Below are positions 2,963-64,000 of a stretch of 64,000 bases of DNA, in pieces. Where the stretch lies: positions 5,793-69,792 of the forward strand of contig DATDEX010000279.1 in assembly GCA_036522895.1 (NCBI GenBank). Direction: 5' to 3'. The DNA comes from Candidatus Eiseniibacteriota bacterium (GTDB lineage Bacteria > Eisenbacteria > RBG-16-71-46). Position 1 is the first letter of the stretch. Each line of letters opens with the position of its first letter. The translations under genes were made by a program, and so were the position numbers. The notes under the pieces were generated by a model. That model ran no database searches, was not told the DNA's origin, and was given only the letters and a program-made list of their open reading frames with translations.

Positions 2963-3062
2963 GACTGCGTGAGGTCGTGAGGGAACGGCGTGGGTCGGTG
3001 GCGCGCCTCGGTCGGGCTCGGCGCGTGAGGGAAACGAGCGCTGGCGGGGTTCAGGGGCCTGC

Positions 3063-10178: not shown

Positions 10179-10245
10179 TCGCGGGTGGGCGTGTGTCGGG
10201 GAGGCCGAGCGGCCTCCCCGACACTGTTGCAGCCGGTCGCTCGAT

Positions 10246-11511
10246 CTAGCGGTAGTGCGCCTTGACCGAGCCCCACGTCGAGCGCGTCGTCCCGATGGGC
10301 TGGCCCGGCGATTCCGTCACGACGATGTCGGCGTTGGGAGTGTTCGGCTCGCCGACGAGATTCAGGGTGCCGTCGCCATCGGTGTCCTTGAGCCAGGCAA
10401 ACTGCGGCGGTCCCCCGGTGCCCTTCGTGTCGCTCGTCTGATCCCGGTCGGACGAGTGGACGATGAACGGCTGGCCGAGAATCGTGCCTGCGCACAGCAC
10501 CTGGACCCAGTGGCCGCCGCCCGGTGGCCTGGGGTTCGTGTAGCCGAGCTCGACGTCCTCACCCTTGCAGATCTCGCTGAAGATGAACGCGGCCGTAGGG
10601 TTGCCCGGGTGCCGCGTCGCGACGCGACCCGCGGCGGTGAAGTTGCCCGCGGGCGGGTCGCCGTCGAGCGTGGCCATGAAATCCGCGGTGAGGCCGAGGT
10701 TGCTGTTCGAAAGGTAGGTGAGCTTGCCCTTGAGGAACGATGCGTCCGTGACCGGGCTCCCGCTCCGGCGATTCGTGAATGCGCGCGTCATCGTTCCGTC
10801 GAGCTTGCCCACGACCGTGCCGTCGTTTCCGAGCCCCATGCCGCAATTGTCGGGCAGGACGATGCCGCCGTACGTCGCCTTGAGCCAGCAGAGACTGTTG
10901 GAACACGCCGCCGGCCCGCACTGGTTGTCGGCGGCTTCGATGTTCGGATGCCCCGGCTCGCAGCACAGGCTGAATCCCCCGCCGGCGACGAACTGGATCA
11001 CGGCCACGGGCGGCGGAGCCGGCGGCCCCACGAGCGGCACACCGGTGTCCTTACCCTGTCCGCTGAACGTCGTCGGACCCACCGGATAGCTGGTACTCGG
11101 GGGCCCGGAGAAGAACGTCACCGGTGCGGGGGAGTAATCGACGAACAGGCCGATCGAGGAGATCGGTCCCGGGGCGCCGAGGTCGAACACGATTGACGTG
11201 CCGGGGTAGGGCGAGCCCGCGAAGATCGGAAGATTCTGGACGACCCACCCGGAAGCGCTCGCGACATTGATGTAGCCGGAGGACAGGCCGGTCGCGGCGA
11301 AAAGCGTGGCCTGATCCGCCTCGATCACGCCGGTCTGGGAGTCGGGGAACGGATTCGTCGGCCAATCGAAACTGACCTGGGAGACGTTCACGCCCTGACC
11401 GGGAAGCACCGTGACAGCGGAGGCGAGGCGGGGAACGACGAGACCCGTGACCAGGACCGCCACGACACGGGCGAACGACGTGAACTCACTTAGTAGCCGA
11501 CGAGTCGTCAT
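10246..11511 (-). CDS. secreted Cys-rich hypothetical protein
   Basis: 421 aa with an N-terminal signal/TM (RVVAVLVTGLVVPRLASA). It has a Cys-rich core (CCEPGHPNIEAADNQCGPAACSNSLC) and ends in WGSVKAHYR. No recognisable catalytic motif. Confidence 0.45.
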   Translation of the reverse strand: MTTRRLLSEFTSFARVVAVLVTGLVVPRLASAVTVLPGQGVNVSQVSFDWPTNPFPDSQTGVIEADQATLFAATGLSSGYINVASASGWVVQNLPIFAGSPYPGTSIVFDLGAPGPISSIGLFVDYSPAPVTFFSGPPSTSYPVGPTTFSGQGKDTGVPLVGPPAPPPVAVIQFVAGGGFSLCCEPGHPNIEAADNQCGPAACSNSLCWLKATYGGIVLPDNCGMGLGNDGTVVGKLDGTMTRAFTNRRSGSPVTDASFLKGKLTYLSNSNLGLTADFMATLDGDPPAGNFTAAGRVATRHPGNPTAAFIFSEICKGEDVELGYTNPRPPGGGHWVQVLCAGTILGQPFIVHSSDRDQTSDTKGTGGPPQFAWLKDTDGDGTLNLVGEPNTPNADIVVTESPGQPIGTTRSTWGSVKAHYR

Positions 11512-11837
11512 GGTTTCGCTCTCCTGTACGCATCGAACGCGGATGTAGTTCTTGGAGACGAGTTGACCCCGCGTGCGGCTAGCGACGCGGCGATGGAAGG
11601 GTAGGAGCGTGGGTTAGGCGAAGCAATGGCGGAATGCTGCGTTGTTCGTCTGCCCGCCGCTCGGGTTCGTGACGGGCAGCCCGGGTCGTCCACATTCGAG
11701 CGTCGGCGTGGAGACGGCTTGTGAGTTCCAACTCGGAGTGTCGCTCACAGACTCACGTGGCGGACGAGAACCTGGACCGCTACCGCGCCCGGTCGTTGCC
11801 CTACTGACTCGCTCACCCTGAGTTGATGCAACGTCAG

Positions 11838-50440: not shown

Positions 50441-50699
50441 GGCGGGTTCGAATGGGCTGACGAATTCCGAGGCGGGGGGCCCGCGGCTCGGGGACAGTGT
50501 GCGGACCAATGCCGGAGACGCTCTCATAACCGATGGGCCGAGATCTGGGACACTCCTTGGCGACTACGCCAATTGGCGGTCCTATTACCCATTAAGTGGG
50601 CAGCAGATAGCCCTTCCAATGGCGCGGGAGGACTGGCGCAGCCCAGAGCCTCTATAGTGGCATCACGACACCGTATTCAGACGCTGAATCCAACGGAGA

Positions 50700-51773
50700 T
50701 TGCCGATGCCTTCACCCGCACCCTCGACGTTCAAGCCGGTTTGGCTCATCCGAGCAGGGCTCCATGGCGAGGACGAGCACGACTCCTTGGCCTCGGGTCT
50801 AGGAATCATCGGGTTTCACAGCGTGCCCTCGCTCGAGGGCGTGAAAGGTGCGGACGAGGTACTGGCCAAGGTCGAACGGCAGAGCCCCGGGGACAAGGTC
50901 GCTCGCACACGGAACCGCGCCGCTCAACTTACCGCCTTCGTGCTCAAGATGGAGGTCGGTGACACCGTGGTCATGCCGCTCAAGTCCTCACGCTCCCAAA
51001 TCGCCTTTGGACGCATCGCGGGCCCGTACGCATACAAGAAGGTCGGTGATGCCCTCCGCCACGTTCGTCCGATTGAATGGGTGCGTCCCGACGTCCCTCG
51101 TTCCACATTGGCACAAGATCTTCTCTACTCGCTGGGCGCGTTCATGACGGTCTGCCAGGTCACCCGCAATGGCGCCGAGCGCCGGCTTGCCGCCGTGCTC
51201 CGGGGCGGCGTAGACCCGGGGCTGGGCGAGGGGCCCGACGCACACCGGTCTGAGCCGGTCGAGGAGGTCGGGGACGATCCCGCGTTGCTCAACGTCGCAG
51301 AGGCGGCAGAAGACCAAATCGTCTCGCGCATCCAAGCCAAGTTCCGTGAGCACGACCTTGCACGTCTGGTCGACGCCATTCTTCGAGCAGAGGACTACGA
51401 GACGGCCGTATCGCCTCCCGGGCCTGATGGTGGTGTCGATATCCTCGCCGGGCGTGGCGCCCTGGGTCTCGAGGGACAGCATCTCTGCGTGCAGGTGAAG
51501 TCTTCGATGGATCCTTCGGACGTGAAGGTTTTCCGTGAGCTGAAAGGAACCATGGATTCCTTCAAGGCGGACGTGGGCTTGCTCGTGTCGTGGGGCGGGT
51601 TCACTAGGGCGCTTCGACAGGAAGCGCGGCAGAGTTACTTCAAAGTGCGGCTGTGGGGGGCAGGCGAGCTATTGCAGGCGGTCTACCGGAACTACGACCG
51701 CTTGTCGGAGGAGATTCAAGCAGAGCTGCCGCTCAAGCGCGTGTGGGCACTGGTCGGGGAGGAGTTGGAGTAG
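50700..51773 (+). CDS. mrr: Mrr-like restriction endonuclease (Mrr_N + Mrr_cat, PD-(D/E)xK)
   Basis: 357 aa. The C-terminal block 'PGPDGGVDILAGRGALGLEGQHLCVQVKSS' is the Mrr catalytic-core signature (D...QxK). It lies first in the lower-GC island. Confidence 0.65.
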   Translation: MPMPSPAPSTFKPVWLIRAGLHGEDEHDSLASGLGIIGFHSVPSLEGVKGADEVLAKVERQSPGDKVARTRNRAAQLTAFVLKMEVGDTVVMPLKSSRSQIAFGRIAGPYAYKKVGDALRHVRPIEWVRPDVPRSTLAQDLLYSLGAFMTVCQVTRNGAERRLAAVLRGGVDPGLGEGPDAHRSEPVEEVGDDPALLNVAEAAEDQIVSRIQAKFREHDLARLVDAILRAEDYETAVSPPGPDGGVDILAGRGALGLEGQHLCVQVKSSMDPSDVKVFRELKGTMDSFKADVGLLVSWGGFTRALRQEARQSYFKVRLWGAGELLQAVYRNYDRLSEEIQAELPLKRVWALVGEELE

Positions 51774-51774
51774 C

Positions 51775-51921
51775 AAGGGCACGCCACGCGGCGGATGAGC
51801 GGTTGCTGGAGCCGAGCGGCGCGTTTGAGGCGCTGCAATAGATGCTCGGTCAGTCGTCCATCGTGAAGACTCAGCTCCACGCTTGGATCAGCGACGTCAT
51901 GGTGTGGCGAGAGGTGGAGTG
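51775..51921 (+). pseudogene. tyrosine-integrase 3' remnant
   Basis: '...GAFEALQ*MLGQSSIVKTQLHAWISDVMVWREVE' aligns to the intact integrase C-terminus 'AALQQMLGHSSIVTTQRCARISDDMVRRDVE'. It has an internal TAG and the catalytic position is lost. Confidence 0.4.
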
Positions 51922-52317
51922 ATTGGAGATGGGGGCGAGCTAGTTCCAGTCCGTTGCATGGGATCGGGGGGGCGTGGACTTCAAGATGGAGGGGGGACTC
52001 GTTCGGTGGCTGCTATGCCGAATCAATGTCACCGACGCGGGATCAGCTGGGCCCCGAGAAGCGGGTTCTGAGCTTCATGTTCTCGTTCGAGGAGCCGCTG
52101 AAACTCAAGACCTCGATTGATGACGCGGCGCTCGGGCTCGATCGCGTGAACGGGACTGGGGCAGGAGGGAAGCAGGCCGCCGTCAGGTTCAACATCCGTC
52201 TCGAGGACTTCCGGTTCCACTCCATGCAGGGGAAGCTGCTGGGCGGTACTGCCGGCAATCGCAGGAAGCCTCCCGAACCCGAAGAGGGTGAGTAAGGACC
52301 GCCAATCTGCAGCCAGC

Positions 52318-52416
52318 GTTGTAGCCAGTGCCCTCCGTCGAGCTTGCCCCCCCCGCAACTTCGTGTAAACACGCCGACGGAGAGGTGCGAGAGCGGGTGA
52401 ATCGGGCGGTCTCGAA
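52318..52416 (+). repeat. conserved ~100-bp module, copy 1 (downstream of integrase remnant)
   Basis: 'gttgtagccagtgccctccgtcg...cttcgtgtaaacacg...cGGAGAGGTGCGAGAGCGGGTGAATCGGGCGGTCTCGAA'. It is followed by hairpin 52488-52520 (gagccccatgggg/ccccgtggggctc). Confidence 0.6.
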
Positions 52417-52732
52417 GCGGGTCGCTAGCAGAAAACAATACCTTCGCAGCAGACCGTCGAAGGCATTGCGCACCAATAGAATCTCGAGAGCCCCATGGGG
52501 TTGCGACCCCGTGGGGCTCCCTGGCTTTCGGGCATGTACGGGCCGTGGCGGGCGGATTCGGGCGCTGAAACGGTAGCAATCCTGTAGCGGCAACCGGCCA
52601 AGGAATCAGCCGGTCTTGAAGCTGCCGGAGCCTATGGTCGACGAGCCACGTGCGCGGCGTCTGGGAGGATGCCGTTCGGGCCCAGCCATAAATACCTTGC
52701 AAGTACGGCGTAGGTACGCTATCTTTTGCGGC

Positions 52733-53287
52733 ATGACTAAGAAGCCAGTAGCTACGCAACGCGCCCTCCCGGCGAGGCTTGAGGAGCTTCGGGCGTGGGC
52801 TGGGGGAACTGAGCAGGAAATCAGCGAGCTGGTCGGCTCAATGGCGCCCCTTCAGGAACGACTCGAGGCGGCGCGTGAGCGGCTGGACCTCATCAGACGC
52901 CTGATCGGCTTGGCGGAACGAGATGCCTCAGGGCGCGCAGGGGAACAGCACCAGGTCGAGGGGCGCCGCCGAGACGCGAATCAGCCTGAAGTGGTCCTGT
53001 CGACGCCGCGGGCGGGGGGTGATGTGGAAGATCATATCGAGGGGATCCTCGAAGCCGCCGGCGAGCCGGTTCACATCCGCGATATCCGCCAAGCCCTGAT
53101 CGAGCGGGGGGTTCCACTGCCGGGGCGAGGCGACGAGGCAAATCTCATCGTACGCCTGCGCCGAGACGCAGGTCGCTTCACCCGCACAGGAAGAGGCAAG
53201 TACGCATTGTCAAAATGGGGATTGGCGGCTGTCGAACCGTCGAAGACACGAAGGGTAGTACGCAAGAAGAGCGGAGTCTCGAGATGA
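52733..53287 (+). CDS. HARE-HTH (winged-helix) domain protein with N-terminal coiled coil
   Basis: Start ATG 52733 (MTKKPVAT). The C-terminal block 'IEGILEAAGEPVHIRDIRQALIERGVPLPGRGDEANLIVRLRRDAGRFTRTGRGKYALSKWG' fits the HARE-HTH pattern found in restriction-system and RpoE-delta proteins. It is first in a 3-gene operon. Confidence 0.45.
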   Translation: MTKKPVATQRALPARLEELRAWAGGTEQEISELVGSMAPLQERLEAARERLDLIRRLIGLAERDASGRAGEQHQVEGRRRDANQPEVVLSTPRAGGDVEDHIEGILEAAGEPVHIRDIRQALIERGVPLPGRGDEANLIVRLRRDAGRFTRTGRGKYALSKWGLAAVEPSKTRRVVRKKSGVSR

Positions 53288-53886
53288 CGCCAGCTGAAGA
53301 GATCGCGAACTGGGAAATATTTCTATGGGTGCTACAAAGACTCGGGGGTTCGACTGGTCTGGTCGACGTCGAGACCGTATTTTACGACTGTTTCCAAGTG
53401 GCCCCGCAGCGATTCTCCTGGCGAACTCGAGCAGACCTGCCGGACTACAAGAAGTGCTCAAAGGCTCTCCGGGATGCAGAAGCCCGCAAGCCCAGGCTCC
53501 TCGTCAAGACTGGGGACAGTTTCAAGCGCCAGCTGACAGTGGAAGGGCAACAGTGGGTCGAGGCGAATCAGGGTCGCCTTCAGAGGCTGTTGGAGAGCGG
53601 TCGCGTCATTCAGGAGCCCAAGCATCGCCCGAGGGCACGCCACCTCGCTGAAGTGGAACGGAGCGCCGAGTTTCTGCAGTGGCAAACAGCGGGGGTCTTG
53701 CCGGATGAAAAATGGCGGGTCGCCGAGCTCCTTCTGTGTTCGCCCGACAGTGACCCAAGAATCTGGAGAGATCGCCTCGACGTGCTAAGGAGCGGCGCGT
53801 ATGCCGGCGGAAAGAGCGATGTCTTGAGGTTTCTCGAAGAGTTGGTCGAGGCACATCACACCTGGTTCGAGGGAGTTCGGGAATGA
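53284..53886 (+). CDS. hypothetical protein (operon partner, no recognisable domain)
   Basis: 200 aa from ATG 53284. It overlaps the upstream stop by 4 nt (ATGA) and the downstream start by 4 nt (ATGA). Confidence 0.4.
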   Translation: MTPAEEIANWEIFLWVLQRLGGSTGLVDVETVFYDCFQVAPQRFSWRTRADLPDYKKCSKALRDAEARKPRLLVKTGDSFKRQLTVEGQQWVEANQGRLQRLLESGRVIQEPKHRPRARHLAEVERSAEFLQWQTAGVLPDEKWRVAELLLCSPDSDPRIWRDRLDVLRSGAYAGGKSDVLRFLEELVEAHHTWFEGVRE

Positions 53887-56072
53887 AAGAGAAACGTGGC
53901 CAAGTCCACTATGGAGGGCGTGCATTTCACCAGGACGCCACCGAAGCCATGCGTGGCGACATCATCCGGGCCCTCATTGAAACAATAACGAACTCCGACG
54001 ATGCCTACGCAGACGCACACGGAAAGATTCGGGTTGAAGTCGAGCACCGGCGCGGCCCGTGGAGAGTTATCACGCGAGATCGCGCAAAGGGTATGCGCAG
54101 CGCCCGGATGGAGGAGGCGTTCGTTCATCTCGGCGGACGTACCTCTGGCTTTGAACGCGGCGAAAACGTGCGAGGCAATCTTGGCCGAGGGGCGAAGGAT
54201 CTCGCGGCTTTCGGAAACGTGGTCTTCGAGAGCATCTGTGAGAACAGGTATTCCAAGATGACGCTCGAGACCACTGGAGCCTACTGCCTAAGTCCAGAGA
54301 GAAGTGCGGTGGAAACGGATCGAGTTGGGCTCGGCATACCGAAGGGCAGCGGAACGGTCGTCACGATGAACGTGAGCCCTAACATTCGCTGCCCGCAGCA
54401 CGCCCGTCTCACAGAGAAGCTGAAGAAGCATTTTCAGCTTCGCGACATCCTCGCTGATTCGAGAAGAGAGGTTCAGCTTGTCGACTTAAATGACGACTCC
54501 TCTGTGACGCTTCATTCAGCGCACTCGGCCCTGCCCATCGTGTATTCGGACAAGCTCACAATCAAGGAATACCCCGAGGCTAGCGCCGTTGTCACAATCT
54601 GCCGCAATCCTGAGCGCTTTGACGAGCCCGCCTCTGATCCGTACCGACCAGGAGGGCTCTTGATCAAAGGACGCAGGGCGATTTACCAAAACACGTACTT
54701 TCGCTTCGAAAACAATCCGCATGCGGGCTGGTTCTCAGGCCGAGTCGAGTGTGTCTACATTGACAAGCTGGCAAGCGAATATGATGAGCGGCTGGAGTAT
54801 GGCTTGTCCCAAGATGAACGGAACCCAATACCGATTATCACAAGAAGGCGTGATGGGCTCCAAGAGACTCACCCATTCTTCAAATCGCTCGCAGCCGCGG
54901 TCGAGGGGCCCCTGGGAACGCTGATCGCTGAGGAAGAGCGCAAGTCTCGGGAGTCGGCGTCGCACGAAGGCACAAGAATGCGCCGAATGCTTGACACTCT
55001 GGGAAGGGACCTGGCGCGGCTCGTCGATGAGGATCTAAGGGAAATCGAGGAGGATGGCCTTGGCGGGGGACGAGATGGGGATGAGGGAGTTCCGGCAATC
55101 AGGTTGATTCCTGAACAAGCCGTGCTCTACATGGGCGAGAACAAGACGCTGACTGTCCAGGTTCGCGCGGACGTGGGGGCAGCGCGGGTAACGGCAGAGG
55201 TGGAACCCGGCGGGGTGGTGGAGCTCGTCGATGCTGAGGAGATACCACTATCCCCACACAGGCGAAGGCCGGGCGTTCTGAGCGGACAGGTGCATGTCCA
55301 GCCGCTATTGGAAGATGCTGAGACCCTTCTGACCGTCAAAGCGGCTGGTGTCTCCGCTGTCGCCTTGATTGAGGTGAGGCCGGAGAGGGAGGTGGTTGAG
55401 GTTCCGGTGGTGCCGCCCAAGTCCCTCCAGTTCGAGCGGGACAGTTGTCGCGTGACATGGACAAAGAAGAAGAGACTGCGCCTGATTGCGCCCGCAGAGG
55501 TTGTGGCAAGCGAGGGCAAAGAGGTGCAGGTCACGTCGTCCGATCCGGGTGTTGTAGTCATCAGACAACGCACGAGGCTTGAGCTCGATGAAGCAGTCGA
55601 GTACTACTGTGCCGAAGTAGCCGTGGAGGGGAGAACGCTCGGGGCGAAGGCGACCCTTCGAGCGGTCCTCAATGAGCTCGAGGCAACATGCAACGTTCTT
55701 GTCGCACGAGACGATGAGGGTCCCAACTTGATGATAAAGGTGGTCGACGAAGAGGCTGGCAACAATCGAGCAATCGTCGAGACCGATGGAAAAAGAACCG
55801 CAATCAAGATCATGGGCCGTCATCCAGCCCTGAAGCGGTACCGTGGCCCCGCACCCGACTTTCCTGGCGATGACCTCATCGCCACACAGTGCATGACCGC
55901 AGAGATAGTTGCCGGGGAGGCCGCGCGCATCGTTATGGAGCGCAAGTTCCCATTCGGGGCGGGTGCGGAGAATCTGGACGCGGCGCGGCTATACGTCGAG
56001 CATCACCGATACCTCACCAAATACCTTGCGCGGTGTCATCGAGCCCTGGTGCCCGACGCAAGCCTGAAGTAG
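53883..56072 (+). CDS. GHKL-superfamily ATPase (MORC/HSP90-like Bergerat fold) with long C-terminal extension
   Basis: 729 aa. The N-box 'IIRALIETITNSDDAYADA' matches E(L/I)IxN(A/S)xDA of MORC/HSP90/MutL. The G-box-like 'NLGRGAKDLAAFG' follows at the expected ~60-aa spacing. The C-terminal ~450 aa is unassigned (possible Ig-like beta domains). Confidence 0.5.
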   Translation: MKEKRGQVHYGGRAFHQDATEAMRGDIIRALIETITNSDDAYADAHGKIRVEVEHRRGPWRVITRDRAKGMRSARMEEAFVHLGGRTSGFERGENVRGNLGRGAKDLAAFGNVVFESICENRYSKMTLETTGAYCLSPERSAVETDRVGLGIPKGSGTVVTMNVSPNIRCPQHARLTEKLKKHFQLRDILADSRREVQLVDLNDDSSVTLHSAHSALPIVYSDKLTIKEYPEASAVVTICRNPERFDEPASDPYRPGGLLIKGRRAIYQNTYFRFENNPHAGWFSGRVECVYIDKLASEYDERLEYGLSQDERNPIPIITRRRDGLQETHPFFKSLAAAVEGPLGTLIAEEERKSRESASHEGTRMRRMLDTLGRDLARLVDEDLREIEEDGLGGGRDGDEGVPAIRLIPEQAVLYMGENKTLTVQVRADVGAARVTAEVEPGGVVELVDAEEIPLSPHRRRPGVLSGQVHVQPLLEDAETLLTVKAAGVSAVALIEVRPEREVVEVPVVPPKSLQFERDSCRVTWTKKKRLRLIAPAEVVASEGKEVQVTSSDPGVVVIRQRTRLELDEAVEYYCAEVAVEGRTLGAKATLRAVLNELEATCNVLVARDDEGPNLMIKVVDEEAGNNRAIVETDGKRTAIKIMGRHPALKRYRGPAPDFPGDDLIATQCMTAEIVAGEAARIVMERKFPFGAGAENLDAARLYVEHHRYLTKYLARCHRALVPDASLK

Positions 56073-56119
56073 TGCAACGTTCGCGGGTTATCGCAGCGGC
56101 CCCGAGAATGAGGCCACAT

Positions 56120-56252
56120 CGTGGCAAAACCAGTCATTGGTGTTAGCCCCCGGGTGCTCGTGTGGGCCCGCGAGAGATTCGGCGTCTCAATAGCCGACGT
56201 CGCCGAGACTGTGAAGACCGACCCGAGAGTTGTCTCGGATTGGGTGCTCTGA
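56120..56252 (+). pseudogene. 5' fragment of an HTH (ImmA/IrrE- or XRE-partner-like) gene truncated by IS insertion
   Basis: 'VAKPVIGVSPRVLVWARERFGVSIADVAETVKTDPRVVSDWV' resembles N-terminal HTH segments of ImmA/IrrE-family regulators. The reading frame ends at the IS3 left end. Confidence 0.25.
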
Positions 56253-57511
56253 CCCCTATTTCGTGAGACACCCGCTGACCGTTTCTGACGTCTGTTCGCG
56301 CCGGTATTCGAGCGGGCTCCGGTAGCCCAGCGCCGAGTGCGGCGCGTGTTGGTTGTAGTCCGTGATCCAGCCCGGGATCCGCTCCAGCACCCCCGCCGCC
56401 GAACTCCAGTCGGCCCCATCCGGGTGGTCCCGGCGCAGGGTGTTTTCGAGCGCCTCCGACATCACATTCGACTCTGGGCTCGCAACTGGAGTCGTGATCG
56501 GCGTCAGGCTCAGCTTCTCCGCCGCGATCACCGTTTCGAGCGAGGCGTAGATCCCTTCGTTGTCACCGAGGCATCGCACTGGCTCCGTCGGCTTCTCGTT
56601 CCCGAAGCGCGAGAACTCGGGCTGCCGTATCAGCCGGCGGTTGTCGGCGCCGTCGATCGGTCGGGCCTCCGCGACCACCGCGATCGCCTCCCGATCGCAA
56701 CAGTCGAGCGCGAACGCCAACTCGACGATCTCCCCGTTCCAGCACGCGATCGTCATCTTGTCGCTGCACCAGGCTGGTTCGAGCCCGGCATCGTCACCAC
56801 GCCACGATGCGGACGACCGTTCCGACGTCGCCGCCGCACGGCTAGGGCGAGCCCGGTCAGCCGCATCAGCCGCTGGATGCGCTTGCGGTTGTAGCCCGCC
56901 CCATATGCCCGATTGACCAGCACCGTGGCCCGCCGGTACCCGTAACTGCCCCGATCGCGCAGCACCGCCTTCAACTGGGCGTAGACTACGGCATCGTCAC
57001 GCCGATGGTAGCGTCGGGCGCGCGGTCCGCGCTCCCGCTACGCCGTCGCCCGGGCAATCCCGAGCACCCGGCTGATCCGTGCCAACGGCCGGCCGGTCAC
57101 CGCGCGGACACCCCGCAGAAGCGTGATATTTTTCTACCTCGTCACGCGCCGCGCGCAGGATCTCCGGGTCCACGGCCTTTTTCCCGATCAGACGCTCGAG
57201 CTCGCGGATCTTCTGCTGCGCCGCCCGCAGTTCGCTCGCCGGCACCACGTCCTCGTTGGCCGCGACCACGGTCTCGCCGCCCTGGGCGATATCAGGTGCT
57301 TCCGCCGCTGCAACAAGCTGCGCGAAATGCCAAGCTCCCGGCTCAACTCCGAGATCGTGACCTCGCCCCGCGCCAACCGGGCGACCTGCTCACGCTTGAA
57401 CTCCGGCGAGAACAACCGCCGCCCGTCCGAACCCCGTGGAACGCTCTCCATGACACCCTCCTCGGTACCCGGATGGTACCTCGTGAAGATGTCTCGCCGA
57501 ATCGGGGGTCA
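56252..57511 (-). mobile_element. IS3-family insertion sequence, degenerate (orfA/orfB fragmented)
   Basis: OrfA pieces 57451..57188 (RRLFSPEFKREQVARLARGEVTISELSRELGISRSLLQ) and 57269..56997 (ELRAAQQKIRELERLIGKKAVDPEIL). OrfB pieces 56974..56753 and 56756..56256 (rve core ...YNQHAPHSALGYRSPLEY). Imperfect terminal inverted repeats: left 'tgacccctatttcgtgagacaccc', right '...tgtctcgccgaatcgggggtca'. There are extra frameshifts beyond the programmed one. Confidence 0.6.
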
Positions 57512-57523
57512 GGGCAGGGTGTC

Positions 57524-57647
57524 GCTCTGGGCGTTGCAGCAGCTGCTCGGGCACTCCACCGGGGTCATGACGCAGCGCTACTCCCGACTCGGTGACGACG
57601 CAGTCCGCCTCGAGGCCGGGAGGGCCGTTTCAAGGGGCAGGTTGTAG
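57524..57647 (+). pseudogene. tyrosine-integrase 3' fragment (abuts IS3 right end)
   Basis: 'VSLWALQQLLGHSTGVMTQRYSRLGDDAVRLEAGR' matches an integrase C-terminus including the catalytic Tyr context (TQRY). The 5' portion is absent. Confidence 0.5.
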
Positions 57648-57754
57648 CAGAAGTTGTAGCAGCGCCCTCCGCGCGCGTTTGCGTGAACCCCATAAGTTCG
57701 TGTAAGAGCACGCGTGGAGAGGTGCGAGAGCGGTTGAATCGGGCGGTCTCGCAA
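57641..57754 (+). repeat. conserved ~100-bp module, copy 2
   Basis: 'gttgtagcagaagttgtagcagcgccctccgcgcg...gttcgtgtaagagcacg...tGGAGAGGTGCGAGAGCGGTTGAATCGGGCGGTCTCGCAA'. It is followed by hairpin 57824-57857. Confidence 0.6.
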
Positions 57755-57946
57755 TCACGAACGAATACAAACGATACAATTCCGATCTGCTACTAGATGG
57801 GGCGTCGCCAAGCGCTAAATGCAAGGGCCAGAGGGGGCTACAAACCCTTTCGGCCCTTTGCTATGGTGGGCGGTGGGAATCGCTGGGAGCAGGTTGGAGT
57901 GCGGATGCTGTAGCCGGATCTGTAGCCAACAAGGGTTTAGGCACGC

Positions 57947-59113
57947 TTGAACGGCGATGCACAGATGAACTCGTGGAGACATGCAATGGGTACGGTTTTC
58001 GGTCCGACGGTGTACATCCTTGGTGCCGGTGCTTCGGTGCACTCGGGCGCACCACTGCTGGGTGACTTCTTGGCGGCGTCAAGACATGTCTATCACTCCG
58101 GTACGCCAGAGACAGTTGCGCACTATCACGAGATGGCGGAGTTCTTCGGGCATCTCGACGGGATGCGGAGCGTCGCCTACTACGTCGATTCCGATTTTGA
58201 CAATCTGGAAGAGGTCTTCTCACTCTTGGAGATGGGGAAGCAACTGGGCGACAATCAGAGCGTCGATCAGATCGCGCGACTCAGGTGGTCAATCTACGAG
58301 ACCCTCGACGCGACGACGCGCGTCAGAATGAAAGAAGGCAAGCAGATTCCGGATTCCGTCTACATGGAGTTCGTAAACCAGTTCAAGAAGCTCAATGAAG
58401 AGCGTCGGACGCGGGCACGGACGCCAAGTTTGGGAACTGTCAGTGATACGATTGTGACCTTCAACTACGACGTCTTGCTCGACCACGCGCTTGAGGCGGG
58501 ACAGGTTCCGGTAACCTATGGACTATTGCCAGATCGGGAAGACGGCGTGCAACTGCTTAAGCTTCATGGGTCGCTGAACTGGGGTGTCTGCACGGACTGC
58601 AATGGGGCCCCTCAGATTGTGTCACCGAGTAGTGATGCGTGGATCGGGACGCCGAGACTCGACCCGTTACCCGGAGCGAACATTGAACTGCGGCTTGCAA
58701 CAAAGATCCTGCCCGGCACAAAGTGTCGGCAATGCGGGAGGACCGACAGGCTGGAGCCCGTCATGGTGCCTCCGACCTGGTCGAAGCTGATTGCCGGGTC
58801 GCCGTTGGTGCCGGTCTGGACGCACGCGGTGGAAGCTCTCAAGACGGCATATCAAGTCATTATTGTAGGTTACTCGATGCCGACGACGGATACGTTCCTT
58901 CGATATCTTTTTGCTCTAGGGCTCCGGGCGAATCCTTGGTTTAGCCGCGTTGTTGTCGTCAACCCTGACAAGTCGGCCGGCTTTCGCTCACGGTACGAGG
59001 CGGTCTTCGGCAGAGCGCTTGGCTCTCGCGGAAAGCTCATATTCGTGGATCAGGTGAACTTCGAGGACTTCGTTTCGAAGGGCGAAATGGGCAGGATAGG
59101 TCGAAACATGTAA
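57947..59113 (+). CDS. stand-alone SIR2-like (SIR2_2 family) domain protein with Zn-ribbon
   Basis: 388 aa with the motifs 'VYILGAGASV', 'TFNYDVLLDHAL' (catalytic Asn context), 'LKLHGSLNW' (catalytic His context) and 'VIIVGYSMPTTD'. A CxxC..CxxC pair (CTDCNG...CRQCG) is inserted in the domain. Confidence 0.65.
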   Translation: MNGDAQMNSWRHAMGTVFGPTVYILGAGASVHSGAPLLGDFLAASRHVYHSGTPETVAHYHEMAEFFGHLDGMRSVAYYVDSDFDNLEEVFSLLEMGKQLGDNQSVDQIARLRWSIYETLDATTRVRMKEGKQIPDSVYMEFVNQFKKLNEERRTRARTPSLGTVSDTIVTFNYDVLLDHALEAGQVPVTYGLLPDREDGVQLLKLHGSLNWGVCTDCNGAPQIVSPSSDAWIGTPRLDPLPGANIELRLATKILPGTKCRQCGRTDRLEPVMVPPTWSKLIAGSPLVPVWTHAVEALKTAYQVIIVGYSMPTTDTFLRYLFALGLRANPWFSRVVVVNPDKSAGFRSRYEAVFGRALGSRGKLIFVDQVNFEDFVSKGEMGRIGRNM

Positions 59114-59157
59114 GCCGCACGCCTGCTCTCCCTTCCGACTTCGCAACATTTGCTGGG

Positions 59158-59649
59158 CTAGGCCGACTTCCTCGAGTAAAGAACGCGTCCGTGTTTCGCG
59201 ACGAATGCTAGTGGAATCTTGGGGTTGTTGATGTCCTTCGCCCCGTCGCTGTGCCACTTCATCTCCCACTTGGTGTAGAAGGGTTCTAACTGTTCGGGGG
59301 AGACATGATAGACCGCCTCGAGCTCGATGCCATCGTAGACTGCGAAAACCCATGGCACCCGACGATACTTGGCTATGATCGTCGGGTTCATGTGGTGGTG
59401 CGTTGAGAAGCTGCGGGTCAGGTTGATGTTCACTGACTTCAGCTCGTACTCGACTCCGTCAGCATCCCGGGCGTCGTTGCCCTCGCGGCCGGGAATGCCA
59501 ACTAGCCCGGTGAGCAGAAGTACCTGAAGGATCTTGCCCCCGTTGTCCTGGAATACGTCTCCGATGCCATGCTTCGACGCAAGGGACTGAAAAGCCTGCA
59601 CGTAAGGCCAAAGGCGCTCTAGTTCCTTGAAGTCTGGATGCGGCTTCAA
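59158..59649 (-). CDS. type II restriction endonuclease, PvuII-like (PD-(D/E)xK)
   Basis: 163 aa. '[17 protein letters not shown]...[22 protein letters not shown]...STHHHMNP' corresponds closely, from memory of R.PvuII, to its catalytic D58/E68/K70 region and HHH motif. It lies next to a C protein and divergent from a beta-class methyltransferase, as in the pvuII operon. Confidence 0.7.
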
Positions 59650-59882
59650 CGCCCTGCACCCTCAAGCAACTCCCTTAGCGAGACGCGTAAGGCCCGGGCC
59701 AGACGCTCCATGTTGTCGATCGACACGTTTCGCTCAGCCCGTTCGACCGACCCCACGTAGGTGCGGTGGAGGCCCGCAAGCGCCGCTAAGTCCTCCTGGG
59801 AAAGCAAGCGGTCGTGGCGGATGCGCCGGAGGTTTGCTGCAAAGATTTCGCGTGCGCGGTGAGCGCGATCGTGGGCTACCAT
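59646..59882 (-). CDS. R-M controller (C) protein, XRE-family HTH (C.PvuII-like)
   Basis: 78 aa. '[48 protein letters not shown]' is a classic C-protein HTH. Its stop overlaps the endonuclease start (ATGA). Confidence 0.75.
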
Positions 59883-59914
59883 GGCGGCGACAATGTGACG
59901 TTGACGACTCTTGG

Positions 59915-59942
59915 TCTACAGACTATAAGTAGCGTTCCCTGA
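59915..59942 (-). promoter_or_regulatory. C-box-like operator palindromes upstream of the C gene
   Basis: GTCTACAGAC and GACTATAAGT(A) (GACT..AGTC-type half-sites) sit 35-60 bp upstream of the C gene start, in the divergent C/M intergenic region. Confidence 0.4.
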
Positions 59943-59953
59943 GGAGGAGCCCA

Positions 59954-60970
59954 TTGGCCATGCGCAGCAAGGAACGTGAGCGGAGGCGGCGAGAGCCCGC
60001 GTACTTCACCGAGCTAGGGCAGGCGTATAGCGGTGATTCAATCGAGTTGCTTACCGAGCTCCCTGACGACTCGGTCAATCTCGTACTTACGAGTCCGCCC
60101 TTTGCGCTGCAAAGAAAGAAGGCGTACGGAAACAAGGACCAGTCCGAGTACATCGACTGGTTGGTTGAGTTTGCCCGGGTTGTGCATACAAAGCTTCGCC
60201 CCGATGGGAGTTTTGTTCTGGATCTCGGTGGGGCATACCAGAAGGGAGTTCCAGCAAGAAGCCTTTACAACTTTCGGGTGCCAATTCGCTTGTGCGATGA
60301 GTTGGGCTTCTTTTTGGCCGAGGACTTCTATTGGTTCAACCCGTCAAAGCTCCCCAGCCCCATTGAGTGGGTGAACAAGCGGAAGATCCGCGCGAAGGAT
60401 TCAGTCAATAACGTGTGGTGGTTTGGGAAGACAGAGTGGCCTAAGGCGGACGTGTCTAGGGTGCTCACAGAGTACAGCGATCGGATGAAGAAGCTGATCG
60501 CCGATCCGTCAGGATTCTACACGCCAAAGAAGCGCCCCTCTGGGCACGACATCAGTGGCCAGTTTGGACGCGACAACGGCGGAGCAATCCCGTCCAATCT
60601 CTTGTCAATCCCTAACTCGGAGTCGAATGGGCGCTACTTGGAAGGTTGCCGTGTAATGTCAATCGCTGGGCACCCGGCGAGATTCCCGGCGAAGCTGCCG
60701 GAGTTCTTCATCAAGTTCTTGACGGATCCGAACGACCTGGTTGTCGACATCTTCGCTGGGTCGAACACAACTGGAGCAGTTGCGGAGGCGCTGGGCCGAA
60801 GGTGGATTAGCTACGACCTTTCCCTTGAGTATCTGGCGGCGTCGACCTTCAGGTTTGCGAGCTCTGGGACTTCTGTGGAGCAGATGCAAGTAGTCCACGA
60901 TCGTGTGCTCAAGGGGAAGTCCGTGAACCTCGATGTGCTCGATCACGCCCCCCGGCTCTCCCTGGGGTAG
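59954..60970 (+). CDS. beta-class N4/N6 amino DNA methyltransferase (M.PvuII-like)
   Basis: 338 aa. Motif IV SPPF (aa about 47) precedes motif I 'DIFAGSNTTG' near the C-terminus (beta permutation). Its size and divergent arrangement match pvuIIM. The called start is TTG at 59954, with an alternative ATG at 59960 and a GAGGAGG SD upstream. Confidence 0.8.
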   Translation: MAMRSKERERRRREPAYFTELGQAYSGDSIELLTELPDDSVNLVLTSPPFALQRKKAYGNKDQSEYIDWLVEFARVVHTKLRPDGSFVLDLGGAYQKGVPARSLYNFRVPIRLCDELGFFLAEDFYWFNPSKLPSPIEWVNKRKIRAKDSVNNVWWFGKTEWPKADVSRVLTEYSDRMKKLIADPSGFYTPKKRPSGHDISGQFGRDNGGAIPSNLLSIPNSESNGRYLEGCRVMSIAGHPARFPAKLPEFFIKFLTDPNDLVVDIFAGSNTTGAVAEALGRRWISYDLSLEYLAASTFRFASSGTSVEQMQVVHDRVLKGKSVNLDVLDHAPRLSLG

Positions 60971-61100
60971 TCAGCTCTGGGGAACAGCCTCAGGCCTCTC
61001 TTGGCCATAGTCCGCAAAGCTGAAACCGAGGGAATCGGCGGGAGTTCCTGAGAGTCCGCTTCAAACAGTCATTGCCGCGAGCCGTATCGCGACAAATACT

Positions 61101-61144
61101 GCGGGTGCCGTCGATATGCCGACGGCACCCGTTTCGTTGTTCGG
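61101..61144 (+). terminator. rho-independent terminator-like hairpin (alternatively a Rep origin hairpin)
   Basis: A perfect 11-bp stem gggtgccgtcg/cgacggcaccc with a 6-nt loop, followed by gtttcgttgtt. It lies 130 bp after the methyltransferase gene and 45 bp before the Rep gene. Confidence 0.45.
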
Positions 61145-61186
61145 CAAGGGCATCCGGAGTGGCATGGCCAGGGAAGGGCATCGAGG

Positions 61187-62215
61187 ATGGGAAGCCAGGC
61201 CTACGGGATGCGGCTGTATCGGTACGGGATTGAGCTCAGGGGCGACGGGAGGAGAAGGGAACGGCTACCAGGCGGGCACGTCGTGATCGTTCGGCAAGAG
61301 GGCAAGTCGTCGTTCCGTGGGAAGATTCGGGCGTGGTCAGAGGCGAGCGCGAAGCGGCTCGCCCTCATTGCGGCCAACGCGGAACTGTTCTTCGGCTCTC
61401 ATGTCACGCTGACCTACCGCGCCGCCCAGGAGTCGTGGGAGACCGCAGGCGATCGGAATCGCCGATTCGTCCGGCGGTGCAAGGCGGACCTGCATAGGTT
61501 CCTGAGGGCCCTGCGAGCTGAGCTCGGGGAATATCTGTGGGTCCGGGAGTTCCAGGAGCGGGGAGTGGTCCACTACCACGTGCTGGCCCAGCATGAGGTA
61601 CCCGAAGCGAGGGCTGCGGAGGCCTGGGCGCGTGCGTCGGGGCAGTTCGGCGACGAGGCAGTATTGCGGCACGGCGTGAAGGTCGACGCGATCCAAAGTC
61701 AAAGGGGGGCGAGGCACTACCTGGGGAAGTACATCGGGAAGGAAAAGCAGAAGGGGTTGCCCGCGGGCGTTGATGGTGCGGGGCGCTGGTGGGGTCGGTC
61801 GCGAGGCCTTCGGTTGGCGCTGCTGGAAGACATCGTGTGGCTCGATCGAGGCGACATGTTCAGGCGTCCGGCCCAACTTCGAATCGTTCGGGGCCTGCGC
61901 GGATACATACAGCGTCGGTTCCGACGACGGTACCGAGGCGCCGCGTTCCTCGATTTCGGCGGCGCGCTGTCAGCGAAGTTGGTTGAGCTGGCGGCGCGGT
62001 TGCGCGAGTTCTACGGATGGAGTCCCAGCTTGGTCGAGCGACTGGAGAGGAGCGGTTGGGAAGTGATTCAGGAAGGGACTGAGGATGGACATGCAGCGGC
62101 TAGTGTCGAGGATCAAGCAGCATCAGTTGGAGAAGAGGCAGAAGGAGTTGGAGCGGAGACAGGAAGCGATGGCAGAGGCGCTCAGCAAGCGAAGCTCTGG
62201 CCCGCGACCCGATAA
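61187..62215 (+). CDS. HUH-superfamily replication initiator (Rep, AICE/pSAM2 RepSA-like)
   Basis: 342 aa with HUH motif 'GVVHYHVLAQ' and catalytic Tyr motif 'RHYLGKYIGK'. Confidence 0.6.
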   Translation: MGSQAYGMRLYRYGIELRGDGRRRERLPGGHVVIVRQEGKSSFRGKIRAWSEASAKRLALIAANAELFFGSHVTLTYRAAQESWETAGDRNRRFVRRCKADLHRFLRALRAELGEYLWVREFQERGVVHYHVLAQHEVPEARAAEAWARASGQFGDEAVLRHGVKVDAIQSQRGARHYLGKYIGKEKQKGLPAGVDGAGRWWGRSRGLRLALLEDIVWLDRGDMFRRPAQLRIVRGLRGYIQRRFRRRYRGAAFLDFGGALSAKLVELAARLREFYGWSPSLVERLERSGWEVIQEGTEDGHAAASVEDQAASVGEEAEGVGAETGSDGRGAQQAKLWPATR

Positions 62216-62219
62216 TCGA

Positions 62220-62375
62220 ATGACGACGAAAGAAGCCGCGGAAATGCTGCGGGTCCACCCAAAGTCCGTGGGCCTGTGGCGCAAGCGCCGGAATCTACCT
62301 TCCAAGAAGAATGGTCGAAGCGTAGTGTTCATCCGTGGCGACGTCCTTCAGTGGCAGGCTCTGCAGGAGAGCTGA
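62220..62375 (+). CDS. excisionase/MerR-like small HTH DNA-binding protein (Xis)
   Basis: 51 aa (MTTKEAAEMLRVHPKSVGLWRKRRNLPSKKNGRSVVFIRGDVLQW). It lies between Rep and the integrase, and its stop overlaps the integrase start (TGATG). Confidence 0.5.
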   Translation: MTTKEAAEMLRVHPKSVGLWRKRRNLPSKKNGRSVVFIRGDVLQWQALQES

Positions 62376-63357
62376 TGCCGAAACTGCCGAGGGGGATGTT
62401 TCTGAGGAAGGGGCGCGGGTACTACACGCGCCGCTGGACGGACGGGAATGATCGCTGGCTCGCGTTGGGCCCGGACTTCGACGAGGCGTGCCGCAAGCTT
62501 CGGAATGCCGAGCGAAGCGAGGTGCCGGTGGTCCGGCTCACCCTGAAAGAGGCGGCTGCCAAGTGGCTCGAAACCTACGTGGCCAAGAATCGGGCGCCTA
62601 AACAACGGGTGAAGGCCGCTCAACGGGTGCGTGACTACTTCGAGCCGTTCATGGGTTACAAGCTGCTCTCGCGGGTCGACAAAGAAGACCTGCGGGCGAT
62701 GCGCCTATGGTTGAAGAGGCAAGAGAAGAAGCCGCTTTCGGTGCGCCACATCCTGGCCGACGTGAAGTGCTTCTTCCGATGGTGCGAGGACGCGAGCTGG
62801 CTGGACCGGGCCCCGATCCAACACCGGTTGCTTCCCAAGTCGCAGGAGCGCCCGCCGGATCGTCTGGACGATGCCGATGTGGAGCGCCTGTTGTCGGTGC
62901 CGGAGCCTTACGCATTCATCGTGCGGCTGGCATTGGGAACCGGACTTCGCTGGGGCGAGCTCGCGAGGCTCAACAGCAACGACCTGGAAGTGGCGCGTTC
63001 CGAGGGGGAAGTACGCAGGGCATCCTCGTGGTGCGTCACACCAAGTCGTGGCGAGTTCGCAGGATTCCGTTGCAACGAGCGCTCTACGATGAACTGCGGA
63101 TGCGGGTCGGTCGGTTTCTGCCGATCATCAATCCGTTGGGCTTCGCTCGCATGGTGCGACGGTATTCAGGCGTCGCGACGTTCCACGCGCATCAGCTACG
63201 GCACACATTCGCGTGCCGCTGGCTGGAACGCGGCGGCGGCCTCGCGGCGCTGCAACAAATGCTCGGCCACTCGTCCATCGTGACGACGCAGCGCTGTGCG
63301 CGAATCAGCGACGACATGGTGCGGCGGGACGTGGAGAGGTTGGAGGCGGTGAGGTGA
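62375..63357 (+). pseudogene. tyrosine recombinase/integrase, frameshifted and with catalytic Tyr replaced by Cys
   Basis: The N-terminal frame (ORF 62276..63283 from MPKLPRG) carries the core-binding domain. The frame switches at a GGGGG run about 63004-63011 to ORF 62707..63357, which carries 'HQLRHTFACRWLERGGGLAALQQMLGHSSIVTTQRCARISDD'. The HxxR is present, but the expected catalytic Y reads C. Confidence 0.65.
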
Positions 63358-63617
63358 AATCCGAAGGGGCGCGTCCAAGCCGGATCCGTACGGTCCTGGT
63401 CATTGCAGGCCGGGTCCTGCTGGTATGGGCGTCGCTGTATATTGCCGGGTTCGGATGCACCTCATTGGTGTTCTCTAGCGGACAGCAGTGGCAGGTGTAC
63501 GTACCGTCGCTCGTGTTGGCCGTGGTCACCATGTGGCTGGCGACTCGTGGGCTTCCTCTGCGTCGGGCGAAAGCAGTAGGGGCGCCACCGGAGGCCAATC
63601 TGAAGCCGGATCTGTAG
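63354..63617 (+). CDS. small hypothetical membrane protein (GTG start overlapping integrase stop)
   Basis: ORF 63213..63617. From GTG about 63354 it gives 'VKSEGARPSRIRTVLVIAGRVLLVWASLYIAGFG...' with 2 TM helices. Its stop TAG lies inside the 'ctgtagcca' motif of repeat copy 3. Confidence 0.2.
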   Translation: MKSEGARPSRIRTVLVIAGRVLLVWASLYIAGFGCTSLVFSSGQQWQVYVPSLVLAVVTMWLATRGLPLRRAKAVGAPPEANLKPDL

Positions 63618-63710
63618 CCAGTGACCCTCCGCCGGGTTGCGCGACGCCGCTAACTCGTGTAACTACACCGGCGGAGAGGTGCGAGAGTGGTTGAATCGGG
63701 CGGTCTCGAA
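63611..63710 (+). repeat. conserved ~100-bp module, copy 3 (downstream of integrase)
   Basis: 'tctgtagccagtgaccctccgccg...ctcgtgtaactacacc...gcGGAGAGGTGCGAGAGTGGTTGAATCGGGCGGTCTCGAA'. Confidence 0.6.
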
Positions 63711-63773
63711 ACGGGAAGCGCCCATATTGCTAACGAACTCACGAAGACGTGTCGCCACTTGATATTACGCGAC

Positions 63774-63815
63774 GGCCCAAGAGATTGTAGCCTCTTGGGC
63801 CTCGTCGTTTTCGTG
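63774..63815 (+). terminator. rho-independent terminator-like hairpin
   Basis: ggcccaagag / ctcttgggcc 10-bp stem with a 7-8-nt loop, followed by tcgtcgttttcg. Confidence 0.5.
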
Positions 63816-64000
63816 GACATGGATGGACACAAATGGACAATAAACCACGGCATTCCAGTAGCAGATCAGTAGCAGGGCAGATTCGATGCAGACGAGGTCC
63901 CCTGCCAAAGGCGGCTGCGGCTGCGCGCCCCCTCGATGGATATCAGGCCGAATGGGCCTAGGGCGTTACGCGATGTCATCGAGTTCGCCCTATCGGTGTC

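Follow-up and report, generated by a model that had tools for sequence, protein, structure and literature searches.

The DNA analyzed here is a stretch of 64,000 nucleotides (nt) from a chromosome of the Eisenbacteria, an uncultured phylum (the window). In the part from 50.5 to 64 kb, three small integrative elements (E1, E2 and E3) of one integrase family very probably form a tandem array, which is now a fossil. The repeated attachment (att) module of the array corresponded to a promoter and the 5′ half of tRNA-Ser(CGA). Therefore, the target appeared to be a tRNA gene struck from the unusual 5′ side. In relatives, the preference of the family for the 5′ side of tRNA genes was shown, and the element would supply the promoter and the 5′ half to the gene. 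An earlier reading of this DNA (the original prediction) had proposed successive integrations at one att site, in which each unit consisted of cargo, then replication initiator, excisionase and integrase genes (rep, xis and int), and then att. This proposal was borne out by the differing cargo, the diverged integrases, the matched arms of the units and the discrete relatives of E3. The tRNA-derived nature of the module and the use of the reverse side of tRNA targets are added here, both deduced from sequence comparison. Positions are given in window coordinates. Merged coordinates run on rightwards past the window end (64,000) to 99,323, which was reached in three successive steps.

The original prediction had noted three integrase 3′ ends followed by one shared module, and we located these ends at 51782-51928, 57522-57647 and 62375-63357. 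A 36-nt core of the module, GGAGAGGTGCGAGAGYGGKTGAATCGGGCGGTCTCG, was present in three copies in the window, all on the + strand, where 0 copies were expected from shuffles. Copy 1 was located at the E1/E2 junction (52379-52414), copy 2 at the E2/E3 junction (57716-57751) and copy 3 at the junction between E3 and the rightward DNA (63673-63708). The distance from the integrase end to the core was about 450, 69 and 316 nt in E1, E2 and E3. The core copies were 34-36/36 identical. Alignment of the module copies, which had been suggested as a check, gave 65-79% identity outside the core (a difference of 21-35%). No further core match was found in the window with up to 3 mismatches allowed. In addition, an nhmmer profile of the ~120-nt module detected no copy beyond the three in 81.8 kb and no degenerate fourth copy at the left border. 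In total, three copies were present in 99 kb, each directly behind an integrase end.

The identity of the module came from a genome-wide pattern scan and not from ARAGORN or Rfam. The core was searched in 185,579 species genomes, and at least 120 matches were obtained, one per genome; among the matches listed, these were in Acidobacteriota, Chlorobiota, Ignavibacteria, Eisenbacteria and others. In 12/12 loci checked, an intact tRNA-Ser(cga) predicted by ARAGORN began with the 36-nt core. Nearly all the remaining listed matches also ran into an intact tRNA-Ser(cga), as judged by sequence, and the intact gene was present in more than 100 genomes. The core was thereby shown to match nucleotides 1-36 of tRNA-Ser(CGA). 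Past the core, the intact gene read ...CTCGAAAACCGTT..., and the window copies parted from it after ...CTCG(A)A(A), that is, in the anticodon loop, with no 3′ half behind. Since the copies stop there, ARAGORN and Rfam found no tRNA and no family match for the module in the window.

A promoter-like block (TTGCGC ... TTCGTGTAAACA) preceded the core in all three copies. It was located at 52344-52378 in copy 1 (TTGCCC ... TTCGTGTAAACA), at 57679-57715 in copy 2 and at 63637-63672 in copy 3 (TTGCGC ... TCGTGTAACTA), all on the + strand. The same block was observed upstream of the intact tRNA-Ser(cga) in the Eisenbacteria genomes L089 and L061 and in the metagenome locus L131. It was also present before the host-side copies in L013 and L131. 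This conserved position suggested that the block might act as a promoter. Terminator-like hairpins were predicted ~75-100 nt downstream of each core, at 52488-52519 (E2 P′ arm), 57824-57857 (E3 P′ arm) and 63774-63801 (P′ arm of a next element, with a T-run), all on the + strand. Their folding energies were −33.3, −23.5 and −25.7 kcal/mol with z = −4.4 (−4.36 to two decimals), −2.1 and −4.4 for copies 1-3, and the counterpart of the second in L131 was a perfect stem of −29.2 kcal/mol. The strong hairpins of the original prediction were thus confirmed; its uniform 7-nt loop was not, the predicted loops being 4-8 nt. The hairpin could serve as a terminator-like insulator in the P′ arm.

Pairs of GTAGC repeats with 12-nt spacing were found at about −72/−60 and +190/+205 from tRNA nucleotide 1 in all three copies, and short phased repeats lay between the hairpin and the downstream pair. 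All arms were on the + strand. The P arms contained CTGCAGCCAG / TTGTAGCCAG, 12 nt apart, in E1 (52307-52327), TTGTAGCAGA / TTGTAGCAGC in E2 (57642-57662) and CTGAAGCCGGATCTGTAGCCA in E3 (63600-63620). The P′ arms contained GGTAGCAA / TGTAGCGG in E2 (52571-52590) and CTGTAGCCGGATCTGTAGCCA in E3 (57908-57928), and the latter pair was identical in the P′ arm of L131. After copy 3, the P′ arm of a next element (63814-63875) consisted of TGGACA three times with a 10-nt period (63814-63839), followed by CAGTAGCAGA / CAGTAGCAGG (63856-63875). Because paired GTAGC repeats were present on both sides, every copy could be assigned as a P-core-P′ junction. The order of P arm, promoter, core, terminator and P′ arm was shown to match an attP-like P-O-P′ junction between neighbors.

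Metagenomes were scanned with the integrase alignment, and 80 loci (L131-L210) were obtained. The locus L131 carried a single element of 8.4 kb with the order cargo-rep-xis-int and an intact integrase. On its left side, a broken tRNA 5′ half at 2985-3020 was followed by a P′ arm. The cargo consisted of two Kelch-repeat secreted proteins and was followed by rep, xis and int (9977-10984). On its right side, a P arm and promoter block were followed by an intact tRNA-Ser(cga) at 11357-11446 and then by tRNA-Ser(gga) and tRNA-Ala(cgc). The two ends were identical over tRNA nt 1-39 and diverged immediately afterwards. The int-proximal end contained P repeats only, and the distal end contained P′ repeats only. 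We read these ends as attL (B-O-P′) and attR (P-O-B′) of an element located upstream of the tRNA. The cores of copies 2 and 3 marked the limits of the homology between the window and L131. This indicated that E3 was a discrete unit with an exchanged cargo slot, which held SIR2 and PvuII restriction-modification genes in E3 versus Kelch proteins in L131. Copy 2 with the following P′ arm aligned to the attL of L131 over 244 nt with 86% identity. The E3-type unit was found elsewhere as a discrete element, with homology bounded by module cores, in L131, L133 and L143.

The side preference was consistent across the family. Of the loci whose sequence extended 200 nt or more past int, 36/55 had an intact tRNA within 1.3 kb of int. 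In all of these (36/36), int was located just upstream of the tRNA on the same strand. The targets were tRNA-Ser(cga) in 19 loci, tRNA-Arg(cct) in 12, tRNA-Cys(gca) in 3 and tRNA-Ser(tga) in 2. Evidently, the clade has switched among at least four tRNA targets, and the int-upstream layout was always kept. Elements at tRNA-Cys (L159) and tRNA-Arg (L181) were bounded by 5′-half repeats. A two-unit array was observed at tRNA-Arg in L180, with 5′ halves at 552 and 4742 and the intact gene at 11570. Integrase C-terminal stumps beside att sites recurred among the relatives. In the Eisenbacteria genome L061, a gap of 33 nt separated an intact family integrase from the intact tRNA-Ser(cga) downstream of it, and the integrase adjoined Replic_Relax and TraG-like genes.

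Three further observations concerned the relatives. Some tRNA-Arg(cct) genes with a 5′-side family element also had a 3′-half repeat downstream (L181 at 9589, L183 at 2244 and L210 at 1874), and an element of conventional orientation may be located on the other side of the same genes. Among 14 viral relatives of the integrase, two distant ones from IMG/VR (L217 and L219), which were about 52-54% identical, were followed by an opposite-strand tRNA-Met (10936-11012 and 10946-11022, both on the − strand), which is the conventional 3′-end layout. Because of this layout, integration on the 5′ side may have been derived within a single sub-clade. In L089 (Candidatus Eisenbacteria JANYBS010000067.1, 2790-3090), an intact tRNA-Ser(cga) had no family integrase within 2.8 kb upstream. 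Arm-like repeats of another variant (GTACCC) were present upstream and downstream of this tRNA, and a HEPN gene was near. These repeats may be the scar of earlier elements or the native source of the arms.

The genes of the three units were then assigned to the array. The calls of Mrr, GHKL ATPase, IS3 fragment, SIR2, PvuII restriction-modification, HUH Rep, Xis-like HTH_17 and Int in the original prediction were supported by Pfam and PADLOC. In E1, the cargo was a Mrr-type restriction endonuclease (50700-51773, +), which matched Pfam Mrr_cat (E=4.5e-19) and the PADLOC candidate system PDC-S02 (E=2.4e-126). It was followed by an integrase remnant of the last ~49 residues with in-frame stops (51782-51928, +). 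In tblastn, this remnant was 61% identical to residues 284-332 of the L131 integrase. The Mrr gene started 240 nt past a host MocR-type regulator, and the left flank consisted of ordinary host genes. E1 is a stump without a left att site.

In E2, the cargo consisted of three co-oriented genes (52616-56072, +), which encoded a weak HARE-HTH protein, a 200-aa (amino acid) product and a 729-aa GHKL ATPase according to Pfam and metagenome gene calls. For this middle unit, the predicted GHKL and IS3 genes stood, and the weak HARE-HTH match (E=0.0065) did not reach the threshold. Neither PADLOC nor NCBIfam gave a match for the operon. Since it occupied the slot of defense cargo and yet matched no model in these databases, it is a candidate for an uncharacterized defense system. 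An IS3-family transposase fragment (rve_3, HTH_21; 56256-56974, −) truncated the E2 backbone. The integrase fragment that followed (57522-57647, +) comprised the last ~40 residues and kept the catalytic Tyr.

In E3, the cargo began with a SIR2-like protein (57986-59113, +), with 25.0 bits against the Pfam SIR2_2 cut-off of 24.5 and a weak PADLOC SIR2 match. A PvuII-type restriction-modification system followed on both strands (59158-60970). It consisted of the endonuclease (59158-59649, −; Endonuc-PvuII, E=5.7e-65), a controller (59646-59882, −; HTH_3/HTH_31 gene call) and an N4/N6 methylase (59960-60970, +; N6_N4_Mtase, E=1.2e-40). The backbone contained a rolling-circle-type (HUH-type) replication initiator (61187-62215, +; REP_ORF2-G2P, E=2.2e-12), which was 72% identical to the Rep of L131, and an excisionase-like HTH_17 protein (62169-62375, +). 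The integrase pseudogene (Phage_integrase; 62375-63357, +) had almost its full length. It carried a frameshift at about 63004-63007, and its catalytic Tyr was replaced by Cys. It read TTQRCARI, as compared to TTQRY in intact relatives. The repaired E3 integrase was 87% identical in protein and 90% identical in DNA to the intact L131 integrase. Inside rep (61338-61374), Rfam gave a single-copy CRISPR-DR20 match of 26.7 bits, below the gathering score of 42, which was most likely due to chance. Small open reading frames (ORFs) between int and the module (51954-52295 and 63354-63617) were taken as spurious, because they were not conserved with each other or with L131-L135.

The units were independent elements and not duplicates of one another, as was shown by comparing them. 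The cargo differed between the units, and the integrases of E2 and E3 had diverged. The variant of the arm repeat was the same on both arms of a unit, with GTAGCC in E3 and GTAGCA/G in E2. All three integrases were inactivated, as had been predicted, through the in-frame stops of the remnant, the truncation of the fragment, and the frameshift and Tyr-to-Cys change. Because all three are dead, the array could no longer be excised by its own integrases. The array sequence was 100% identical in contigs of at least eight soil metagenome assemblies, which indicated that the frameshift in the E3 integrase was not a read error of one assembly. The identity of the contigs was consistent with a fixed array. 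The lower G+C content (GC) that had been noted for the last ~13.5 kb was also observed, with 56-66% between about 50.5 kb and the end of the window compared to ~70% for most other parts.

Based on the above results, a mechanism can be proposed. A live member would be a circle-forming unit of 5-8 kb with the order P′ arm, cargo, rep, xis, int and P arm. Its attP would consist of an arm-site pair, the promoter-like block, tRNA-Ser(CGA) nt 1-39, the terminator hairpin, and the phased repeats with a second arm-site pair. Int would catalyze recombination between attP and the tRNA-Ser(CGA) gene of the chromosome, with a crossover in the anticodon loop or close to it, a position to which the 3′ edge of the identity block points. 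The GTAGC pairs may be bound by the arm-binding domain of Int, and the phased repeats may be bound by the excisionase. After integration, the element would be located upstream of the tRNA. The working tRNA gene would then be made of the element promoter, the element 5′ half and the host 3′ half (attR, beside int), and the promoter block of the element would drive it. The displaced host promoter and 5′ half would stay at the far end and face the terminator of the element (attL). There, the hairpin might stop transcription from the displaced host promoter from entering the element, and it might do the same for attP in the free circle. Repeated integration into the occupied site would stack the elements and leave a P-core-P′ junction between neighbors, which would give the three modules. 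The cargo slots would have delivered the defense genes, namely the Mrr/PDC-S02 nuclease, the GHKL ATPase operon, SIR2 and PvuII restriction-modification. The E1 integrase would then have been cut to its C-terminal remnant by deletion, E2 truncated beside the IS3 fragment, and E3 frameshifted with loss of the catalytic Tyr. This left-to-right gradient of decay, from a stump through an IS3-cut fragment to a frameshifted gene, fits growth of the array towards the tRNA side, which would also give the order of arrival.

Several results weighed against this explanation. No host-side attL was detected by the module profile left of the Mrr gene (50700). The 35.6 kb right of copy 3 contained no intact tRNA-Ser(cga), any other tRNA, 3′ half, family int or family rep. 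Since no intact target was found right of the array, integration at the native tRNA locus of this genome was deduced from the relatives. In a tblastx comparison of the window flanks with Eisenbacteria loci that carry an intact tRNA-Ser(cga), only noise was observed outside the module and integrase, with no synteny. The recovered contigs of the lineage were all 100% identical, with no empty site or excised form among them, and therefore there was no presence/absence polymorphism to compare. The promoter-like block was not called by a sigma-70 consensus scan. In addition, the P′ side of the junctions lacked the 3′ strand of the anticodon stem, so that the core was not an obvious symmetric Int-binding site.

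The missing ends raised the question of the later history of the array. It is possible, on balance doubtful, that the array was built at tRNA-Ser(CGA) and is now detached. It could have been carried in or cut off by mobile DNA (the IS3, a large serine-recombinase element or an integrative and conjugative element (ICE)-like region), or deletions could have removed attL and the 3′ half. This history would differ from the explanation above in the later fate of the array alone and not in the identity of the module. It would account for the absence of attL leftwards and of a tRNA or 3′ half within 35.6 kb rightwards. The low GC and the mobile genes (IS3, a 530-aa serine recombinase, ParB_N, RadC, DUF932 and methylase) that continued up to merged 99 kb were consistent with it, as was the fact that contigs of two independent assemblies broke off about 290 nt past copy 3. 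However, the intact tRNA may be located further right, because arrays and ICEs at tRNA genes can pass 50 kb. The P′ arm after copy 3 was also intact and family-like, and window 63655-63805, from copy 3 into this arm, was 80% identical over 153 nt to L013. This suggested that another element of the family once started there.

The DNA right of copy 3 showed low GC throughout the 35.6 kb, and on this side the array passed into a mosaic island, which extended for at least 35 kb. Directly past copy 3, a 943-aa Ser/Thr kinase was found on the − strand (PADLOC PD-T4-6 / mad6-like, E about 1e-66 to 4e-66). Beside it, also on the − strand, was a 567-aa OLD/GajA-like ATPase-TOPRIM nuclease (E=1.7e-52). 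This pair (L127 2917-7771, merged about 63990-68844) extends the defense island. The genes right of the array further included IS3, FG-GAP, two RuvC, ParB_N, RadC, DUF932, a methylase and the 530-aa serine recombinase. A − strand integrase at merged about 68.9-69.5 kb was rejected as a family member. It was a different, truncated tyrosine recombinase, because it was 30% identical to the family and its N-terminus was absent. The two RuvC paralogs (173 and 181 aa) were adjacent in the low-GC region (L211 18138-19313, merged about 88.1-89.3 kb), next to ParB_N, PDDEXK, RadC, DUF932 and a C5-methylase. This region looks like a larger ICE- or phage-like element. The contigs L004 and L006, from two independent assemblies, both stopped one base past the window end, ~290 nt past copy 3 and at the 3′ end of the kinase gene (window 63990-64000, merged 64001). 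Their shared end hints at a strain-variable junction or a branch of the assembly graph.

A second alternative, which we consider improbable, is that the modules are functional small-RNA cassettes. Each would consist of a promoter, the tRNA-Ser 5′ half, a leader of ~75-100 nt and a terminator, and its transcript would serve the cell or the island. The RNA could be a regulator of translation or of defense genes (a 5′ tRNA-half RNA), a decoy for anticodon nucleases or a recombinase-associated RNA. The promoter-like block, the 34-36/36 core and the strong hairpin were kept although the neighboring integrases were dead, and the setting in a defense island was in keeping with such a role. However, the core was exactly nt 1-36 of tRNA-Ser(cga), and the relatives had a complete tRNA at the same place after int. 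Between core and hairpin, sequence conservation was limited to related elements and roughly matched that of the int gene, and there was no Rfam match. The attP design would explain all these features, since a working promoter and 5′ half would be needed and the terminator would act against read-through. As a weaker related reading, the clade might systematically rewire the transcription of Ser-CGA, Ser-TGA, Arg-CCT and Cys-GCA tRNAs in uncultured soil bacteria through promoter replacement.

The remaining alternative, that the module is a dispersed repeat of the repetitive extragenic palindrome (REP) or miniature inverted-repeat transposable element (MITE) type or a local segmental duplication with no tie to site-specific integration, would fit three similar ~120-nt hairpin-bearing copies within 11.3 kb, but it was refuted, in agreement with the original prediction, by the copy number in 99 kb and by the lack of any copy there away from integrase ends, and it also conflicted with the tRNA half in the core, the absence of cargo common to the units and a divergence outside the core that fits separate lineages rather than recent duplication. 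A split tRNA with halves joined in trans was also rejected, because no 3′ half was found in 99 kb and the halves in relatives arise by integration.

The array was next compared with known systems. Each integration leaves a restored att core at both ends, and later elements can therefore enter at either one and form arrays of unlike neighbors (PMC7192596). Like the tRNA-gene tandem arrays described with Islander/TIGER (PMC7192596), the window array had three att copies, an integrase or remnant per unit, differing cargo and internal decay of integrases. Unlike the usual arrays, the repeated piece was the 5′ half with the promoter and not the 3′ end. It also differed from the canonical arrays in that no intact target was found within 35.6 kb at one end and no host att at the other, which counted among the points against the proposed explanation. 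Recombination at the 5′-distal part of tRNA genes has been described as 'considerably less frequent' than at the 3′-distal part, with citation of Zhao & Williams 2002 and archaeal cases (PMC6563490). As far as these 5′-side integrators are described in that citing paper, they resemble the present family in the location of the element, upstream of the tRNA, and in the duplication of the tRNA 5′ part. Most of the other 5′-side cases cited there are archaeal viruses or plasmids, whereas a whole clade of bacterial integrases was found here. In this family, the 5′-side trait was observed at four tRNA targets together with a rep-xis-int backbone.

E3 had been called similar to actinomycete integrative and conjugative elements (AICEs), and this comparison held in part. 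In pSAM2, the gene order is rep, xis, int and attP, with attP directly after int. The same rep-xis-int-attP module (window 61187-63708; L131 8744-11395) and a tRNA gene target were found here. However, the RepSA family was not reached. The Rep of L131 matched RepSA weakly (Pfam E=2e-4, 21 bits against a cut-off of 34; NCBIfam E=4.6e-4, 19 against 700), and the window Rep matched REP_ORF2-G2P alone. No FtsK/SpoIIIE-type transfer gene, which is a feature of AICEs, was found among the ORFs tested in E2, E3 and the L131 element. In addition, the host is Candidatus Eisenbacteria and not an actinomycete, and the opposite end of the tRNA was targeted. Candidatus Eisenbacteria is the name under which NCBI lists proteins with 100% identity to those encoded immediately right of the window. 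The predicted likeness was thus supported by gene order, and not by the transfer gene, the RepSA score, the host or the target end. The cargo was similar to that of defense islands carried by elements, with Mrr/PDC-S02, PvuII restriction-modification with its controller and a SIR2-like protein, and the kinase and OLD/GajA-like genes just to the right. Nothing was notably different in this comparison, and the GHKL/HARE-HTH operon had no PADLOC model.

These results suggested how the island was assembled. The formerly unexplained ~100-bp repeat can be read fully, since the att site, arms, promoter block, terminator and unit borders were located. The defense genes of the island would have come as cargo of small rep-xis-int elements. 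Stacked arrays at tRNA sites are already well known, and this is not a new kind of system; the uncommon but precedented feature is the insertion on the 5′ side. A clade of bacterial tyrosine integrases was found on the 5′ side of tRNA genes in at least 36 loci with four tRNA targets. Because of this side, the elements of the family have to carry both a promoter and a 5′ half themselves. Programs for finding islands may overlook such elements or place their borders wrongly if they presuppose a 3′ tRNA fragment and a tRNA-then-int layout. The family could offer integrases with a different target geometry.

Outside the array, further low-GC patches were observed in the window at 24-27 kb (55-64%) and at 42-46 kb (60-65%). 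The latter patch contained a Sel1-repeat protein and an M48 peptidase.

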